Positions 42,530-44,758 of a stretch of 64,000 bases of DNA are shown piece after piece. The notes under the pieces are model-generated. The model was given only the letters and a program-made list of their open reading frames with translations. It was not told where the DNA came from and searched no databases. Source of the DNA: Clostridia bacterium (GTDB lineage: Bacteria; Bacillota; Clostridia; Oscillospirales; CAG-272); assembly GCA_017408585.1 (NCBI GenBank), contig JAFQUJ010000010.1, positions 433-64,432 of the forward strand. The letters run 5' to 3'. Both the position numbers and the translations under genes were made by a program. Each line of letters starts with the position of its first letter. Position 1 is the first letter of the stretch.

Positions 42530-42604
42530 GGCCCGTTGGTCAAGCGGTTAAGACACGGCCCTTTCACGGCTGTAACATGGGTTCGATTCCCGTACGGGTC
42601 ACCA
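42530..42604 (+). tRNA. tRNA-Glu (UUC)
   Basis: 75 nt. GGCCCGTTGGTCAAGCGGTTAAGACAC...CTTTCAC...GGGTTCGATTCCCGTACGGGTCACCA, nearly identical to Bacillus tRNA-Glu as I recall it. Confidence 0.95.
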
Positions 42605-42749
42605 GCAAAACAAAAAGGACACTCACAGGAGTGTCCTTTTGCTTTGCTGACGGTCCATACAGGACCGAATCGAACCCATTCTCGCACCTGTGCGAGTCGG
42701 GTTCGCGGTTCATGCCTTGCCCTTCCGCGTCGGAAGCTTGTAAGGCAAG
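42597..42749 (+). repeat. Direct repeat copy 1: last 8 nt of tRNA-Glu, a terminator hairpin and a three-hairpin module
   Basis: GGTCACCAGCAAAACAAAAAGGACACTCACAGGAGTGTCCTTTTGCTTTGCTGACGGTCC...GTAAGGCAAG. Repeated at 42886 with only two differences. Confidence 0.9.
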
Positions 42750-42885
42750 GCATCTTCCCGTACAAATTTTTGATAGCCTTGCTTGGCGAAAATTTGCTTG
42801 TTCGCTCTAGTTAAATCGAGAAATTGGGTTCGCAACAAATGCTCGCATAGCGAGCCTTCCCGATTATTCTCACTTGCGAGAATAA

Positions 42886-43037
42886 GGTCACCAGCAAAAC
42901 AAAAAGGACACTCACAGGAGTGTCCTTTTGCTTGCTGACGGTCCATACAGGACCGAATCGAACCCATTCTCGCACCTGTGCGAGTCGGGTTCGCAGTTCA
43001 TGCCTTGCCCTTCCGCGTCGGAAGCTTGTAAGGCAAG
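42886..43037 (+). repeat. Direct repeat copy 2 (attR-like: carries GGTCACCA of tRNA-Glu without the rest of the tRNA)
   Basis: Identical to copy 1 except for one missing T (TTTTGCTTGCTG versus TTTTGCTTTGCTG) and one G>A change (GTTCGCAGTTC). The copy ends inside the last hairpin. Confidence 0.9.
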
Positions 43038-43049
43038 TTTTCTCTGCCA

Positions 43050-43069
43050 AAGTGTAAAAAAGTGTAAAA
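43050..43069 (+). repeat. Perfect tandem 10-mer AAGTGTAAAA x2 abutting the islet promoter
   Basis: AAGTGTAAAA at 43050-43059 and again at 43060-43069, 5 nt upstream of the -35 box. Confidence 0.8.
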
Positions 43070-43074
43070 TATTC

Positions 43075-43103
43075 TTGACAAACATTACATTTTGTAATAT
43101 AAT
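43075..43103 (+). promoter_or_regulatory. Perfect consensus sigma-A promoter of the islet cassette
   Basis: TTGACA (43075-43080), a 17-nt spacer, then TATAAT (43098-43103). Confidence 0.65.
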
Positions 43104-43123
43104 TGTGTTGTGAGGTGATGAAA

Positions 43124-43441
43124 ATGTTTATAACTGATATAATCTCTATTACCGAGTTGTCAAGATTGACTGGAAAAAGCCGACCCACAATATATAAATA
43201 TATCAATGATTACAATGTGGGAAACTACGACGACATTCCGTTTTCAATCATAGAATTATTTAAAATGTCTGCTTCTTGTTCAAAATCCGATGTAATCTTA
43301 TATTGCCACAAAACTTATGGTAAAAACACTCAAGCTTGTAATGAGAAGACGCAAGAAGTAATCGAATTGATTATTAAAAACAATGCAAAATTAGATATCG
43401 GCAAACTTAAAACTTTTATTTTGGAGGAATTAAAAAAATGA
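43124..43441 (+). CDS. Small HTH protein (excisionase/MerR-like N-terminal helix-turn-helix)
   Basis: 105 aa from ATG 43124 (RBS GAGGTG 6 nt upstream). Motif ITELSRLTGKSRPTIYKYINDY. AT-rich codon usage unlike the flanking genes. Confidence 0.6.
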   Translation: MFITDIISITELSRLTGKSRPTIYKYINDYNVGNYDDIPFSIIELFKMSASCSKSDVILYCHKTYGKNTQACNEKTQEVIELIIKNNAKLDIGKLKTFILEELKK

Positions 43442-44454
43442 CGAATGAAATTAACACTAAGCACACGAAGCTTTTTAAATCTTTACAATATTTAAGGCTT
43501 CAATATTCTTTGTATTTAGTTAATGAAGATTTAGCAAAAAATCAGCCGACTATTACAAATCAAAGTGATGGTTTTTTTAAAAGTTTCTTCTCGGCAGTAG
43601 GTAATGAATTCAAGGGCAGTAAAACAAATAAGCTACTTGCGGTTAAAAGTAATATTGAAAGTGAAATAAAAAGATTTTTAAATAGTTCAAATGAATCACT
43701 ATACAGAGAAAACGAAATCGCTGCTATCGTTCGTGAGGTTTTTCAAGACGATATATACGCCTTAGAAAAAACCATTTTTTCAACAAGTATAATTTTAGAT
43801 GGCGAATATGCTTACGAATACGAAAAAGAAACCTTAAACTACATTTCAATGTTGCTATGGAACAAAAGTGACCGCTTGATGAATATGAGGAATAGTATCG
43901 AGGGTATTTATAAAGAATTAGCAAAACAACCTTTAAGTACAAATCAAAAATTATTGTTAGGCGGAACTGCGGCATTAGTGTTATTAACTGCAACTGTTCC
44001 CGCTTTGGCGTTGGGTGGACTATCTGCATCAGGAATCACAGGAGGGTTAGCTGGATTCGGTACAGCTGTTGGACTTGGTGGAACAATGGTTGAAGGTGTA
44101 GGACTTATGGCTCTTGCAGAATTACTATTAGATGGTGCTATTATAGGTTTTACATACGCTATGCTTGATACTCATAACAGAAATATCGTAAAAAATTCGT
44201 TCAGAGAAATGAATTATAATAGTGCGGCTAAAATGTTAGCGATTAGATGTTATGTTATGCATGTTGCAAAACAAACCATGCCAAAAGAAGTTTTCAAAGA
44301 AAAAGTAAGTGAATTATTACAAATGCTACAAGATTTAAAATCAGATACAGATTATGTCTTGTTGGTTGAAAAGCAAAATATTGAAGAAAACAAAAAGAAA
44401 GTTCGAGTTTTCCATAATTTAGATGATAAATTAGCCAAAATACTTTGTGAATAA
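43438..44454 (+). CDS. 338-aa helical protein with a central Gly/Ala-rich hydrophobic hairpin; no recognisable family
   Basis: ATGA overlap with the HTH gene. Residues about 172-243 (LLLGGTAALVLLTATVPALALGGLSASGITGGLAGFGTAVGLGGTMVEGVGLMALAELLLDGAIIGFTYAML) are flanked by charged, helix-prone regions. No signal peptide. Confidence 0.6.
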   Translation: MTNEINTKHTKLFKSLQYLRLQYSLYLVNEDLAKNQPTITNQSDGFFKSFFSAVGNEFKGSKTNKLLAVKSNIESEIKRFLNSSNESLYRENEIAAIVREVFQDDIYALEKTIFSTSIILDGEYAYEYEKETLNYISMLLWNKSDRLMNMRNSIEGIYKELAKQPLSTNQKLLLGGTAALVLLTATVPALALGGLSASGITGGLAGFGTAVGLGGTMVEGVGLMALAELLLDGAIIGFTYAMLDTHNRNIVKNSFREMNYNSAAKMLAIRCYVMHVAKQTMPKEVFKEKVSELLQMLQDLKSDTDYVLLVEKQNIEENKKKVRVFHNLDDKLAKILCE

Positions 44455-44468
44455 TAAGAGGTTTTATA

Positions 44469-44683
44469 ATGAAAAAGGTTCAATTAATCGCTTACCAAAA
44501 CATTATTGGCGTAGACAAGAACGATTTAGAAGGATTAAACGGGATTTTTAAAAGCCCAATAGAGCTTTTTGATGAAAGCAGAAGTAATCACAGTATAGTA
44601 TAGCAAATGAAATGATTGATAAATATGAGCATGAAATAAGCAAATTATTCAATCCAAGCATTCAAATCAACTTTATTGAATAA
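44469..44683 (+). pseudogene. Small ORF apparently broken by a frameshift (44 codons, then a 23-31 codon continuation in another frame)
   Basis: A good RBS AAGAGG lies 7 nt before ATG 44469. MKKVQLIAYQNIIGVDKNDLEGLNGIFKSPIELFDESRSNHSIV* ends at 44603. Frame +2 continues SQYSIANEMIDKYEHEISKLFNPSIQINFIE* to 44683. Confidence 0.3.
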
Positions 44684-44720
44684 ACAAAAGTTCAATTAAG
44701 GTTAACACTCGCTCGCCAAG

Positions 44721-44758
44721 AACAAAAGGACACTCACAGGAGTGTCCTTTTGCTTTGC
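44721..44758. terminator. Third copy of the repeat's terminator hairpin; terminator for the convergent oxidoreductase gene
   Basis: AACAAAAGGACACTCACAGGAGTGTCCTTTTGCTTTGC, matching 42609-42647 apart from one fewer A. It lies 3 nt from the stop of the minus-strand gene at 44761. Confidence 0.8.

Follow-up and report, generated by a model that had tools for sequence, protein, structure and literature searches.

A probable integration hotspot downstream of tRNA-Glu in a Clostridia genome, bounded by an undescribed structured element

Background

In a 64,000-nucleotide stretch of a Clostridia genome (the window), the 3' end of a tRNA-Glu gene recurs downstream of the gene itself, together with the sequence that follows it, and an AT-rich segment separates these repeats from a convergent oxidoreductase gene. 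Are these repeats the attachment sites of integrated elements, and, if so, what was integrated, and by what machinery?

Elements that lack an integrase, retain attL and attR and pile up at the 3' ends of tRNA genes form a recognized class (PMC5704250; bioRxiv 10.1101/2020.12.28.424599), which includes the CIMEs (cis-mobilizable elements); in streptococci, ICE/IME-derived elements accumulate in tandem at tRNA 3' ends (reviewed in PMC5704250, which cites Pavlovic 2004 and Bellanger 2011). The present locus probably belongs to this known kind of integration hotspot, and its boundary element is undescribed.

Results

Layout of the locus and its repeats

The region is delimited by a two-tRNA operon on the left and by the oxidoreductase gene on the right:

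~42403-42431, + strand: tRNA operon promoter, TTGACA...TATAAT, read directly from the sequence
42449-42524, + strand: tRNA-Met(CAU), first gene of the operon (ARAGORN; Rfam tRNA model, 66 bits)
42530-42604, + strand: tRNA-Glu(UUC) (ARAGORN; Rfam tRNA model)
44761-45855, - strand: convergent Gfo/Idh/MocA oxidoreductase gene; this right flank is conserved between the window, L002 and L063

The last ~25 nt of tRNA-Glu, GGTTCGATTCCCGTACGGGTCACCA, are the prototype for the tRNA-3'-end-like "a" sites that are repeated at the locus, and the genuine end is unoccupied, being followed by CA, a leader and a hairpin, in every relative seen. The islet was initially annotated as AT-rich, and the G+C content of the cargo segment is indeed 0.27-0.33 over 43100-43850 and 44150-44750, against ~0.40-0.46 in the flanks.

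The repeats are also as first described. The octamer GGTCACCA and the 144 nt downstream of it occur twice, as DR1 (42597-42749) and DR2 (42886-43037), which are 99% identical, the only differences being a 1-nt indel in the T-rich stretch past the hairpin and a G/A substitution at 42707, and a third copy of the hairpin, AAAAGGACACTCACAGGAGTGTCCTTTTGCTTTGC, lies at 44724-44758, 2 nt from the stop codon of the oxidoreductase gene. Within the window, a 45-nt probe from the unit has two copies and a 26-nt hairpin probe has three, all at this locus, with 0 matches for either in 100 shuffles. The hairpins are embedded in similar segments:

42605-42647, + strand: A-rich leader, hairpin h1 (stems 42617-24 and 42629-36, loop ACAG) and T-rich trailer
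42894-42935, + strand: leader, hairpin h2 (loop ACAG) and trailer, identical to the h1 segment but with 1 nt deleted from the trailer
44719-44759, + strand: leader, hairpin h3 (stems 44728-35 and 44740-47, loop ACAG) and trailer TTTTGCTTTGCC

The h1 region is the centre of an imperfect palindrome of ~100 nt, which the tRNA 3' end forms with its inverted copy (nhmmer matches on both strands), and h3 is a bidirectional terminator used jointly with the convergent oxidoreductase gene. Apart from GGTCACCA at 42597 and 42886, a degenerate tRNA-end-like sequence, GCTCGCCA, is present at 44711, and equivalent sites are found in L002, L007, L009, L021, L024 and L063, so that the tRNA 3' end is repeated as in a CIME-like array.

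The boundary element U

More than a bare att site, the 152-nt unit is the start of a conserved multi-hairpin element of ~170-290 nt, which we denote U. This element lies past the tRNA terminator; an inverted copy of the tRNA 3' end opens it and a direct copy closes it. Its 3' end consists of TTCCCG, a small hairpin and GGTCACCA, followed again by leader and hairpin. The window contains one complete and one partial U:

42648-42893, + strand: first U, complete, long form (fold z-score -9; homology to U in L002, L006, L007, L009, L010, L021, L024 and L063)
42648-42680, + strand: inverted tRNA-3'-end copy of the first U
42671-42705, + strand: nested hairpin of the first U
42712-42753, + strand: hairpin of the first U
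42754-42763, + strand: scar CTTCCCGTAC within U, joined to the hairpin at 42764-97 (comparison with L009 4527-4600)
42764-42797, + strand: hairpin AAATTTTTG..AAATTTGC within U, equal to the left end of the ORF1-ORF2 cassette as in L009
42826-42832, + strand: GGGTTCG of the first U
42855-42862, + strand: CCTTCCCG of the first U
42863-42885, + strand: small hairpin of the first U
42886-42893, + strand: tRNA-like end GGTCACCA of U, a second attB-like site
42936-43037, + strand: second U, 5' part only, cut inside the 42712-type hairpin between GGCAAG and TTTT and fused to the cassette promoter region

The initial annotation had taken the repeats for att sites around a 136-nt non-coding insert. The hotspot with its empty and occupied sites stands, as described below; the 144 nt that follow GGTCACCA are the 5' part of U rather than simply att, the repeated GGTCACCA is the tRNA-like 3' end of U itself, and the supposed insert (42750-42885) is the 3' remainder of the first U, with the scar of an older cassette. 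A classical att model needs neither the inverted tRNA-end copy nor the covarying hairpins of U.

Comparison of 10 copies reveals double compensatory changes in 16 of the 32 predicted consensus pairs of U, and the counts of G.U versus A.C pairs in the same copies indicate no functional strand. In other organisms, U also follows tRNA-Arg(CCU) and tRNA-Gln(CUG), with a stretch complementary to the T-loop at the position of the inverted segment; after tRNA-Arg, the 3' end of U matches that of its own tRNA at 16 of 17 positions, and the match is weak in the case of tRNA-Gln. An apical sequence, CCGTTGTCAGCTTGCTAGCA, is invariant in U, and the window's own copies lack the conserved apical hairpin. 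No Rfam 15 family matches U (window positions 41000-46000, E<=1; six U-bearing loci, E<=0.1), and these searches gave real matches only for tRNAs, in the window as well as the loci, and for one T-box, in L007. Copies of U coincide exactly with cassette boundaries, and many of them are truncated or scarred.

The 1.7-kb cassette

The AT-rich segment of the window is a cassette with its own promoter region:

43038-43123, + strand: cassette promoter region, with GTGTAAAA twice (43052-59 and 43062-69), -35 TTGACA (43076-81) and -10 TATAAT (43098-103)
43124-43441, + strand: ORF1, 105 aa, small helix-turn-helix protein (all Pfam HTH matches under curated cut-offs)
43438-44454, + strand: ORF2, 338 aa, all-helical, with a central Gly-rich hydrophobic segment (residues ~170-240)
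44469-44683, + strand: ORF3 remnant, 69 aa in relatives, a 44-aa ORF here (alignment with L024 5033-5245; gene calls)
44690-44718, + strand: right end of the cassette, GTTCAA-N15-GCTCGCCA; this degenerate tRNA-3'-end-like site fits the motif common to the right ends of all cargo types

ORF1 is always found paired with ORF2, and its upstream promoter region is kept in every context, even in L013, where U is absent; the two GTGTAAAA repeats are probably an operator for the ORF1 protein. ORF2, a membrane protein, falls into none of the Pfam, PHROG or PADLOC families and matches no fold in the PDB, and its 111 homologue clusters are mostly on contigs of 1-4 kb. ORF3 is a pseudogene in the window because a 5-nt insertion, GTATA, at ~44592-44596 shifts the frame and leaves the 44-aa ORF. 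The normal left end of the cassette is missing as well, since the second U is cut off and fused to the promoter region; elsewhere, the same cassette has a full U upstream (L024 and L006), plus the conserved left-end tail in L024. Having lost its left end and ORF3, the cargo is therefore a decayed, non-autonomous element, decay being one of the options that the initial annotation had named.

Occupancy of the site in relatives

Near-identical relatives, in which the common flanks differ by 1-5 SNPs per several hundred nt, display three states of the site. L002 is the empty site that had been sought, with tRNA-Glu, the hairpin, U, GGTCACCA, a hairpin and the oxidoreductase gene in succession; the window and L001 are occupied by the ORF1-3 cassette; and L063-65 carry three different genes in the opposite orientation between the same flanks. 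In L063, the left junction is CAGGTCAC joined to ACTAATTTC, and the right junction is TTTCGA-N15-GCTCAC, followed by CA and the same hairpin. Because relatives show the empty state, the cassette of the window and the cargo of L063, the integration-hotspot reading holds, and the junctions fall at the repeats, as in a CIME-like array. The larger occupants with a tyrosine or serine recombinase that had been suggested as a thing to look for were not encountered in the 67 related loci fetched (of 69) or in the phage, plasmid and viral collections. Simple excision from the window state does not account for the empty site of L002, whose hairpin loop is AATC instead of ACAG and whose leader also differs.

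The ORF1-3 cassette occurs, with 94-96% amino-acid identity, in other slots that are bounded by the same kind of repeat. These cassette-bounding repeats are 38 nt long at three boundaries in L021 (2107, 3418 and 5289) and ~330 nt long in L024, and the hairpin allele is uniform across all boundaries within one locus. The cargo of relatives is often defence-like, including restriction-modification systems and AriA/GajA-like ATPases. Nearly all of the data derive from metagenome assemblies, and such assemblies break at the repeats.

Cargo end motifs

The right ends of the cargo have GTTCRA-N15-GnTCACCA in common, a motif that matches 18 times in 0.8 Mb where 0.25 matches are expected, and 11 distinct right ends fit GTTCR-N16-GnTYRCCR, in which the spacing is fixed and the spacer sequences are unrelated. 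This two-block motif is a candidate protein-binding site, a reading that fits better than plain homology. A conserved left end, ACTAATTTCTTACAAGCTCCTGCATTACAAT ... second terminator ... TTACAAGCACACGCC, lies past the decoy end, that is, the tRNA-like end of U, in L006, L007 (twice), L024-28 and L063-64, with a + strand terminator after this tail in L006, L007, L024 and L063. A hairpin is located ~50 nt inside the left end of the cargo, and the right end has no subterminal hairpin. Left and right junctions have only ~4-6 nt in common (GnTCAC); a core of this size is short for a tyrosine-recombinase overlap. TCAC ends both the left flank and the right end of the cargo, without a true target duplication.

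Search for mobility enzymes

The initial statement that the locus has no integrase, transposase or relaxase can be extended to the entire window, where neither our own Pfam scans nor the precomputed Pfam annotation detected a recombinase, transposase or relaxase domain. Together, the scans and this annotation covered every non-overlapping ORF of at least 110 aa other than the spurious ones at 42398-42814 and 42811-43206, which lie over the tRNAs and repeats; six ORFs of the window have no Pfam match at all. Scans with Pfam, PHROGs and PADLOC found no integration or transfer genes among ORF1-3, as would be the case in a CIME-like element, and the cargo genes of the relatives include no recombinase, transposase or relaxase (precomputed Pfam annotation and own scans). 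Neither the 67 related loci fetched (of 69) nor INPHARED, PLSDB and IMG/VR yielded an autonomous relative with an integrase beside these ends. Because no recombinase-bearing relative was found, the moving enzyme is hypothetical, and site-specific recombination is an inference.

Discussion

A proposed mechanism

We hold it to be somewhat probable that a cassette hotspot extends from tRNA-Glu to the oxidoreductase gene, in which the decoy tRNA end at U is the site of the cargo and the recombinase is supplied from elsewhere. The resident part comprises the terminator hairpin of the tRNA and the folded U behind it; the cargo is joined on the left to the decoy tRNA end, with GnTCAC as the core, and on the right it closes with a tRNA-end-like site of its own, GTTCRA-N15-GnTCACCA, after which leader and hairpin come again. 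The 1.7-kb AT-rich cargo, with its HTH regulator, membrane protein and broken third gene, would have come with an extra hairpin and the start of a U copy, and it is this arrival that would account for the 152-nt repeat; the scar in the first U stems from an older cassette. By analogy with the integrase-less cis-mobilizable elements at tRNA genes, the most likely mechanism is site-specific recombination, in which an enzyme encoded elsewhere would act on the tRNA-end-like sites, and U would be a landing pad that keeps the real tRNA intact. Several observations tell against this scheme: neither the 67 related loci fetched (of 69) nor INPHARED, PLSDB and IMG/VR contained an integrase-bearing autonomous relative, the core common to the two junctions is short, L002 does not fit simple excision, the direct repeats could equally serve RecA-dependent gain and loss, U carries an inverted tRNA-end copy and covarying hairpins that a classical att model does not call for, the G.U and A.C counts point to no functional strand, and the data come almost entirely from assemblies that break at the repeats.

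Alternative explanations

The same turnover might be achieved by homologous recombination only, the hairpins, U and tRNA-like ends at the boundaries being simply shared sequence, with cassettes gained through transformation or conjugation and RecA-dependent replacement, lost between direct repeats, and no dedicated enzyme involved. The minimal mobile elements and intergenic mosaic repeats of Neisseria work by such RecA-type replacement. The variable segments lie between direct repeats of 32-330 nt, which could support this kind of gain and loss, the 99% identity of DR1 and DR2 and the homogenization of the hairpin allele within each locus are compatible with it (the latter suggesting gene conversion), no recombinase is present in the window or the cargo genes searched, and the different loop and leader of L002 are expected for allele replacement rather than excision. 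However, homology exchange offers no reason why unrelated cargoes share one right-end motif and several share one left end; the left junction of L063 involves just the short GnTCAC core without a hairpin repeat, and the right-hand homology in the window is only ~32-45 nt. We regard this explanation as rather unlikely, though by no means negligible. 

A different enzymology is conceivable, namely, an HUH enzyme (an IS200/IS605-type Y1 transposase or a relaxase) that acts in trans and cuts 3' of TCAC beside hairpins, with U being a folded single-stranded DNA signal, such as a single-strand origin or an oriT-like site. The closure of both the left flank and the right end in TCAC without a true target duplication agrees with this proposal, and hairpin-dominated boundaries with compensatory changes and no strand bias are what one expects of a DNA-level structure. 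PATEs, non-autonomous elements derived from IS200/IS605, insert 3' of a fixed tetranucleotide, have subterminal hairpins at both ends and go with a Y1 transposase in the genome; here, TCAC closes the left flank and the right end, a hairpin lies inside the left end, the right end of the cargo has no subterminal hairpin of its own, and the window encodes no Y1 transposase, Rep or relaxase domain. The ssoA single-strand origins of rolling-circle plasmids possess RS_B (CGAAAATTT) and CS-6 (TAGCNT) motifs in a folded unit of ~160 nt, and U has some likeness to both (PMC4598088; PMC5703833); these likenesses are short and A/T-rich, two U profiles gave no nhmmer match to two staphylococcal ssoA regions even at E<=100, and U has no plasmid BLAST match, so that we reject an ssoA-type origin. 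The HUH scheme as a whole is improbable. We give marginally less credence still to U being a functional non-coding RNA that is read through from the tRNA promoter to the second terminator, the 152-nt repeat then being a local duplication and the turnover of cassettes incidental. The persistence of U across species and behind three tRNA genes, its invariant apical sequence and covarying stems, the + strand terminator past the tail in L006, L007, L024 and L063, the complementarity of its 5' segment to the tRNA T-arm and the mimicry of an acceptor end with CCA at its 3' end would all suit an RNA. Against it count the lack of an Rfam 15 match, the G.U and A.C counts without a strand signal, the missing apical hairpin in the window, the position of U downstream of a strong terminator with no promoter of its own evident, and the placement of the often truncated or scarred copies exactly at cassette boundaries. 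The most improbable reading is that a generic REP- or MITE-like repeat happens to be here by chance: the unit is hairpin-rich, resides at gene 3' ends, also acts as a terminator, and assemblies break at it, but all copies in the 64-kb window are at one locus, a 24-mer from the unit is found at a single place in each of 3 species among 185,579 GTDB species genomes, and the copies in relatives cluster at tRNA-linked arrays. The many scattered copies that had been named beforehand as the sign of a dispersed repeat (REP, BIME or MITE) are thus not seen in the window or in the GTDB species genomes, and on this basis we reject that class.

Comparison with known systems

If a recombinase does act from elsewhere on the tRNA-end-like sites, the CIMEs are the close parallel: they, too, are integrase-less and decayed, have the 3' end of the target tRNA as attL and attR, are arranged in tandem by the tRNA and are presumed to be mobilized by the recombinase of another element. 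In contrast to the CIMEs, no integrase-bearing relative with the same ends came to light here (67 loci, INPHARED, PLSDB and IMG/VR), the cargo is very small (1.7-2.5 kb), and the occupied site is a decoy tRNA end at the tip of the folded U, which also bears an inverted tRNA-end copy. Tycheposons, from the tRNA islands of Prochlorococcus, resemble the locus in having tRNA-adjacent, successive integrations that leave partial tRNA copies and remnants and carry small adaptive modules; they encode their own tyrosine recombinase, which is absent from every slot seen here, and are not known to have a structured boundary element (bioRxiv 10.1101/2020.12.28.424599). Integrons and CALINs, the latter being attC clusters without an integrase, share with the locus small cassettes, folded sites whose structure is kept more than their sequence, a recombinase outside the cassettes and cargo that is often defensive or accessory (PMC4889954). 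Their attC sites are single imperfect hairpins (R''-L''...L'-R'), and their cassettes are promoterless and all oriented alike. Unlike those arrays, the present one is located at a tRNA gene in Clostridia and has no IntI; its boundaries combine a tRNA-end mimic, a terminator and the multi-hairpin U instead of a single attC hairpin, and its cassettes have promoters of their own (the -35 and -10 of ORF1) and both orientations (L063). Accordingly, an integron cassette array or CALIN in the strict sense is rejected.

Pseudo-SCC elements at rlmH, in the composite islands of staphylococci and enterococci, are recombinase-less, stacked, flanked by direct repeats with the 3' end of the target and mobilized in trans by Ccr. 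Here, the target is a tRNA-like end rather than rlmH, no ccr-type large serine recombinase is seen, and the repeats lie within a long palindromic structured element. In the dRS3/RS mosaic arrays and minimal mobile elements of Neisseria, hairpin-rich repeats mark strain-variable cassettes without mobility genes; the Neisseria repeats, scattered in their hundreds, operate chiefly via homologous recombination after transformation, whereas U is low-copy and tRNA-linked, and the ends of the cargo carry a motif with fixed spacing.

Implications

A bolder and doubtful proposal is that the locus represents an integron-like, tRNA-anchored cassette system of gut Clostridia, in which the decoy end of U spares the tRNA, and recombinase-less, often defensive cassettes, marked by a fixed-spacing mimic and a conserved tail, are shuffled by an enzyme from elsewhere. 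The segments of U that are complementary or identical to the neighbouring tRNA (Glu, Arg or Gln) could then be more than passive att scars and, as folded single-stranded DNA or RNA, determine which target is chosen.

U, the right-end motif GTTCRA-N15-GnTCACCA and the left-end tail are signatures with which genomes can be searched for the missing recombinase, and U is, in its own right, a conserved covarying element absent from Rfam. Because the real tRNA and its terminator stay untouched, a decoy tRNA end supplied by a structured element would be a new twist on tRNA-targeted integration. If our reading is right, the locus is a compact and comparatively tractable case of the exchange of small accessory and defence modules in uncultured gut Clostridia, by a unit that contains no phage, plasmid or transposase genes.

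Layout of the locus

The locus lies 3' of two tRNA genes identified with ARAGORN and comprises the following features.

42449-42524, tRNA-Met
42530-42604, tRNA-Glu(UUC)
42597-42749, direct repeat, copy 1: the 8 terminal nt of tRNA-Glu and the 144 nt that follow
42886-43037, direct repeat, copy 2: one 1-nt indel and one substitution relative to copy 1
44724-44758, third copy, hairpin part only, directly abutting the oxidoreductase gene stop
44761-45855, convergent Gfo/Idh/MocA oxidoreductase gene

The repeat of the tRNA-Glu 3' end (the 152-nt unit), recognized in the initial annotation, is borne out by all the measurements made here. 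Probes derived from the unit match nothing beyond these copies in the 64 kb and have no match in shuffled sequence, the G+C content between hairpins 2 and 3 is 27-33% compared to ~40-46% in the surroundings, and the unit folds much more stably than shuffles do, on either strand (z ~ -9). The feature is thus real and non-random. A minus-strand tRNA pseudogene or tmRNA within the 105-nt unit was rejected, with none detected there by ARAGORN.

The surroundings of the locus in the window encode core metabolism, including ilv/leu operons, his operons and glycoside hydrolases. The stretch 48019-51417 encodes, in order, a conserved 648-aa protein that has no Pfam family, an RNA ligase (PF09414) and a REase-ARP nuclease-like product. 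Pfam annotation, by scans or precomputed, covered all non-overlapping window ORFs of at least 110 aa, two spurious ORFs over tRNAs and repeats being left out, and among these ORFs no recombinase, transposase or relaxase domain was found, as the initial annotation had stated for integrases, transposases and relaxases.

Three occupancy states in near-identical relatives

In three near-identical relatives, the same locus presents three occupancy states. In L002 (GCA_045588205.1), tRNA-Met and tRNA-Glu are followed by the hairpin, the 105-nt segment, the 136 nt that separate the two repeat copies in the window, GGTCACCA, one further hairpin and the oxidoreductase gene; the 1.83 kb spanning window hairpins 2 to 3 are missing, and only 5 positions differ over ~480 shared nt. 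The ORF1-3 cassette, that is, the 1.7-kb AT-rich cargo encoding a helix-turn-helix (HTH) protein, the membrane protein ORF2 and a broken ORF3, is present in the window and in the related locus L001. Loci L063-L065, syntenic with the window over 17 kb on each side, carry inside the same flanks a different, oppositely oriented set of three genes, with products of 102 aa, 263 aa (an HTH-TPR protein) and 272 aa. Because a single locus shows the empty, ORF1-3 and different 3-gene states, it is a genuine hotspot. The empty and occupied variants that the initial annotation proposed to seek among relatives accordingly exist, and its opposite scenario, with all relatives alike and many dispersed copies of the unit, is not what the comparison yields. 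The empty site of L002 has the loop AATC and a leader that is also unlike that of the window; given these differences, L002 was rejected as a simple excision product of the window state.

A second, small presence/absence difference is located 3 kb from the hotspot, where L063 (5779-7899) contains an extra pair of genes, for an RHH protein (64 aa) and a 587-aa protein, between the 648-aa protein gene and an ABC-F gene; this pair is absent from the window (~47864-48018). The oxidoreductases of L053-L062, at least 90% identical to that of the window, occupy another operon context (AraC regulator, MatE transporter), so the window copy, beside the ABC-F gene, may itself be relocated. The oxidoreductase cluster member P0234, in an AraC/MatE context and not beside tRNA-Glu, was rejected as a hotspot locus. 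A survey via the GH43 orthologues P0118 and P0129 reached only loci of another kind, with tRNA-Pro or without any tRNA, and lacking the boundary element U described below. Next to P0118, in another Clostridia species, L029 and L030/L031 differ: one state has tRNA-Pro and TraX, the other an island (8.8 kb or more) with genes for a WYL protein, an AAA/M41 protease, DUF6809 and Mn catalase. It is a variable locus of its own, with no relation to U.

A conserved, structured boundary element

The post-hairpin segment of the 152-nt unit is part of a conserved multi-hairpin element of ~170-290 nt, here denoted U, which lies 3' of the tRNA terminator and includes copies of the tRNA end. Copies of U in L006, L007, L008, L009, L010, L021, L024 and L063 are located 3' of tRNA-Glu or at cassette boundaries, and animal-gut MAGs of Oscillospiraceae and Clostridia are the sources of the related copies.

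Parts of the boundary, in 5'-3' order along the tRNA strand
Part 1, 'a', a tRNA-3'-end-like site; the tRNA's own version is GGTTCGATTCCCGTACGGGTCACCA
Parts 2-4, A-rich leader, terminator hairpin, T-rich trailer
Part 5, inverted copy of the tRNA 3' end
Parts 6-7, small variable hairpin, then TTGGGTTCG
Part 8, long hairpin with the invariant apical sequence CCGTTGTCAGCTTGCTAGCA
Part 9, direct copy of the tRNA end: TTCCCG, a hairpin of ~21 nt, TACGGGTCACCA

Copies of U in the window
42648-42893, U 1, complete long form
42936-43037, U 2, first 100 nt only, truncated within a hairpin, with the cassette promoter joined at the break

This anatomy replaces the 136-nt insert and duplicated tRNA end of the initial annotation: the complete U spans 42648-42893, and GGTCACCA at 42886 is its normal 3' end. 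The repeat therefore corresponds to U occurring twice, U being an undescribed boundary element, conserved and structured, whose own terminal tRNA-like 3' end is the decoy tRNA end.

The inverted copy makes the whole, from the tRNA-end-like site onwards, an imperfect palindrome of ~100 nt, with nhmmer matches on both strands. Covariation is evident in an RNAalifold alignment of ten U copies, with double compensatory changes in 16 of the 32 predicted pairs; assignment of a strand from G.U versus A.C pairs was abandoned, the counts being similar, without asymmetry. Searches of Rfam 15 with window positions 41000-46000 and six U-bearing loci returned tRNAs, an unrelated T-box and spurious low-score matches, and no family matched U. 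The T-box leader (141 bits), at L007 3072-3280, is encoded on the strand opposite to tRNA-Glu(CUC), just upstream of that tRNA gene, and controls the 874-aa gene on its other side; it is unrelated to U and the hotspot. Some copies of U contain a conserved insertion of ~130 nt (GGGGGACGTTTGTGAGCGCTGCCAGTGGCAGATGAAGCGAACAA...GGGCTACCTTGGGTAGCGC; L008 ~3245-3115, minus strand; L010 4285-4415; L024 2795-2920 and 5375-5500) that may represent another structured module nested within U; its L010 copy has no Rfam match.

U-like elements also occur 3' of tRNA-Arg(CCU) and tRNA-Gln(CUG) genes of other metagenomic organisms, with a T-loop-complementary stretch where the inverted segment would be. The tRNA-Arg copy terminates in TTCCCGTTGGGAGTGCC, the tRNA's own end being TTCCCGTTGGGGGTGCCA; in the tRNA-Gln copy, the direct-end match is weak. 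A scan of JGI metagenomes with the apical sequence of U gave 4 real and 2 chance matches, and one with the exact hairpin gave none.

Cargo ends and cargo types

At the left junction of L063, U terminates in CAGGTCAC; ACTAATTTCTTACAAGC... comes next, then a second terminator and finally TTACAAGCACACGCC. The same left-end tail occurs 3' of U in L006, L007 (twice) and L024-28. All cargo types observed have a right end made up of GTTCRA, exactly 15 variable nt and GnTCACC(A/G), with the leader and hairpin after it. In 0.8 Mb of fetched DNA, this motif has 18 matches, against 0.25 expected, and occurs only once away from boundaries.

Cargo types with the right-end motif
Type 1, ORF1-3 cassette
Type 2, PGA_cap cassette
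Type 3, 5-gene set
Type 4, GH78-like gene
Type 5, restriction-modification system
Type 6, L021 slot (visible: HsdM, HTH protein)
Type 7, L063 set

Between the cargo left end and the ORF1 promoter of L024 (3270-3600), CAAGCACACGCC occurs three times (direct, inverted, direct), and single copies are found at the left ends of L006, L007 and L063; these repeats look like protein-binding (arm-type) sites.

Genes and history of the window cassette

43124-43441, ORF1, small helix-turn-helix protein, Pfam HTH matches sub-threshold only
43438-44454, ORF2, 338 aa, all-helical, with a central glycine-rich hydrophobic segment

No family was found for ORF2 in Pfam, PHROGs or PADLOC. Its AlphaFold2 model (pLDDT 71) has no PDB neighbour at E<=0.001, and its predicted fold is not recombinase-like. 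The ORF2 homologue clusters (n=111) come nearly all from contigs of 1-4 kb, indicating that assemblies break at the flanking repeats. ORF1 and ORF2 are invariably paired, and the third gene differs among relatives; ORF3, 69 aa in relatives, is broken in the window by a 5-nt insertion. Paired direct GTGTAAAA(A) repeats at 43052-43069, immediately 5' of the -35 box of ORF1, are retained in every ORF1-ORF2 context (L009 4615-4640; L006 6536-6556; L013 4612-4632, where U is absent), and the HTH protein ORF1 probably uses them as its operator.

The cargo of other slots is often defence-like: L006 carries two DNA methyltransferases and a fragment of a restriction enzyme, L021 a type I HsdM and L008 an AriA/GajA/PtuA-like ATPase. 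In L013 the ORF1-ORF2 pair adjoins DarT/NADAR; hence the pair may be a defence or toxin module. The surrounding stretch of L013 (4255-11008; JGI 3300029305) resembles a defence island without tRNA or U and encodes DUF6809, a MORN protein, DarT, the NADAR antitoxin, a DUF1016 nuclease and a large DEAD helicase.

Window U 1 holds CTTCCCGTAC joined to AAATTTTTGATAGCCTTGCTTGGCGAAAATTTGC (42754-42797). Because the same hairpin, after ...TACGGGTCACCAC, is the left end of an ORF1-ORF2 cassette in L009, this segment is the scar of an older cassette with its genes deleted. In the cassette now present, the left-end tail is missing, as are the ~300 nt that precede the promoter in L024; besides the frameshift in ORF3, the right-end core is degenerate (GCTCGCCA). 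The stacked or decayed integration events suggested in the initial annotation fit this combination well.

Mechanism of cassette acquisition

The boundary pattern reads as integration at a tRNA-like attB. Under this scheme, attB would consist of a tRNA-like arm, GnTCAC and the CA-leader-hairpin; attL, of the tRNA-like arm, the core and the cargo left end; and attR, of the cargo right end, the core and the CA-leader-hairpin. The leader and hairpin come directly 3' of the genuine tRNA end in every locus, so that end is unoccupied; the occupied site is the decoy end of U, and the second site of L002 is this decoy attB in the empty state.

The anatomy, the three occupancy states, the conserved ends, the covariation in U and the lack of mobility genes are observations, and the agent is an inference from them. 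The cassettes would be moved by a site-specific recombinase encoded elsewhere, the agent we favour, in the manner of the cis-mobilizable and stacked tRNA-anchored elements cited below and mainly because unrelated cargoes have common end motifs at fixed spacing. Four points speak against this agent, and each of them is compatible with homologous recombination and gene conversion: the core common to the junctions is only 4-6 nt, the empty site of L002 has its own loop and leader, hairpin alleles are homogenised inside each locus, and no integrase-bearing relative was found among 67 related loci (of 69 in all) or in INPHARED, PLSDB or IMG/VR. The comparative data uphold the hotspot and the decayed islet. 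A less likely alternative is a mechanism acting on single strands through an HUH enzyme, in that the flank and the element end both terminate in TCAC and the boundaries are rich in hairpins; however, U does not resemble real ssoA origins, and the window encodes no HUH enzyme.

Origin and classification

A phage or satellite origin was rejected: IMG/VR gave no matches to ORF2 relatives, the hairpin, U or the left-end tail, and INPHARED gave no BLAST match to U. A plasmid origin and ssoA homology were likewise rejected, PLSDB yielding nothing except tRNA 3' ends and nhmmer comparison of U with two real ssoA regions being negative.

Cis-mobilizable elements (CIMEs) retain attL/attR and accrete at tRNA genes (PMC5704250), and tRNA-anchored islands contain stacked elements (bioRxiv 10.1101/2020.12.28.424599). 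The locus resembles CIMEs in that integrase-less elements accrete at tRNA genes, and belongs to the class of accretion arrays of such elements at tRNA sites, which is not a new category. What is new within this class is U, a structured element at the boundary that offers a decoy of the tRNA end and may be a landing pad that protects the tRNA.
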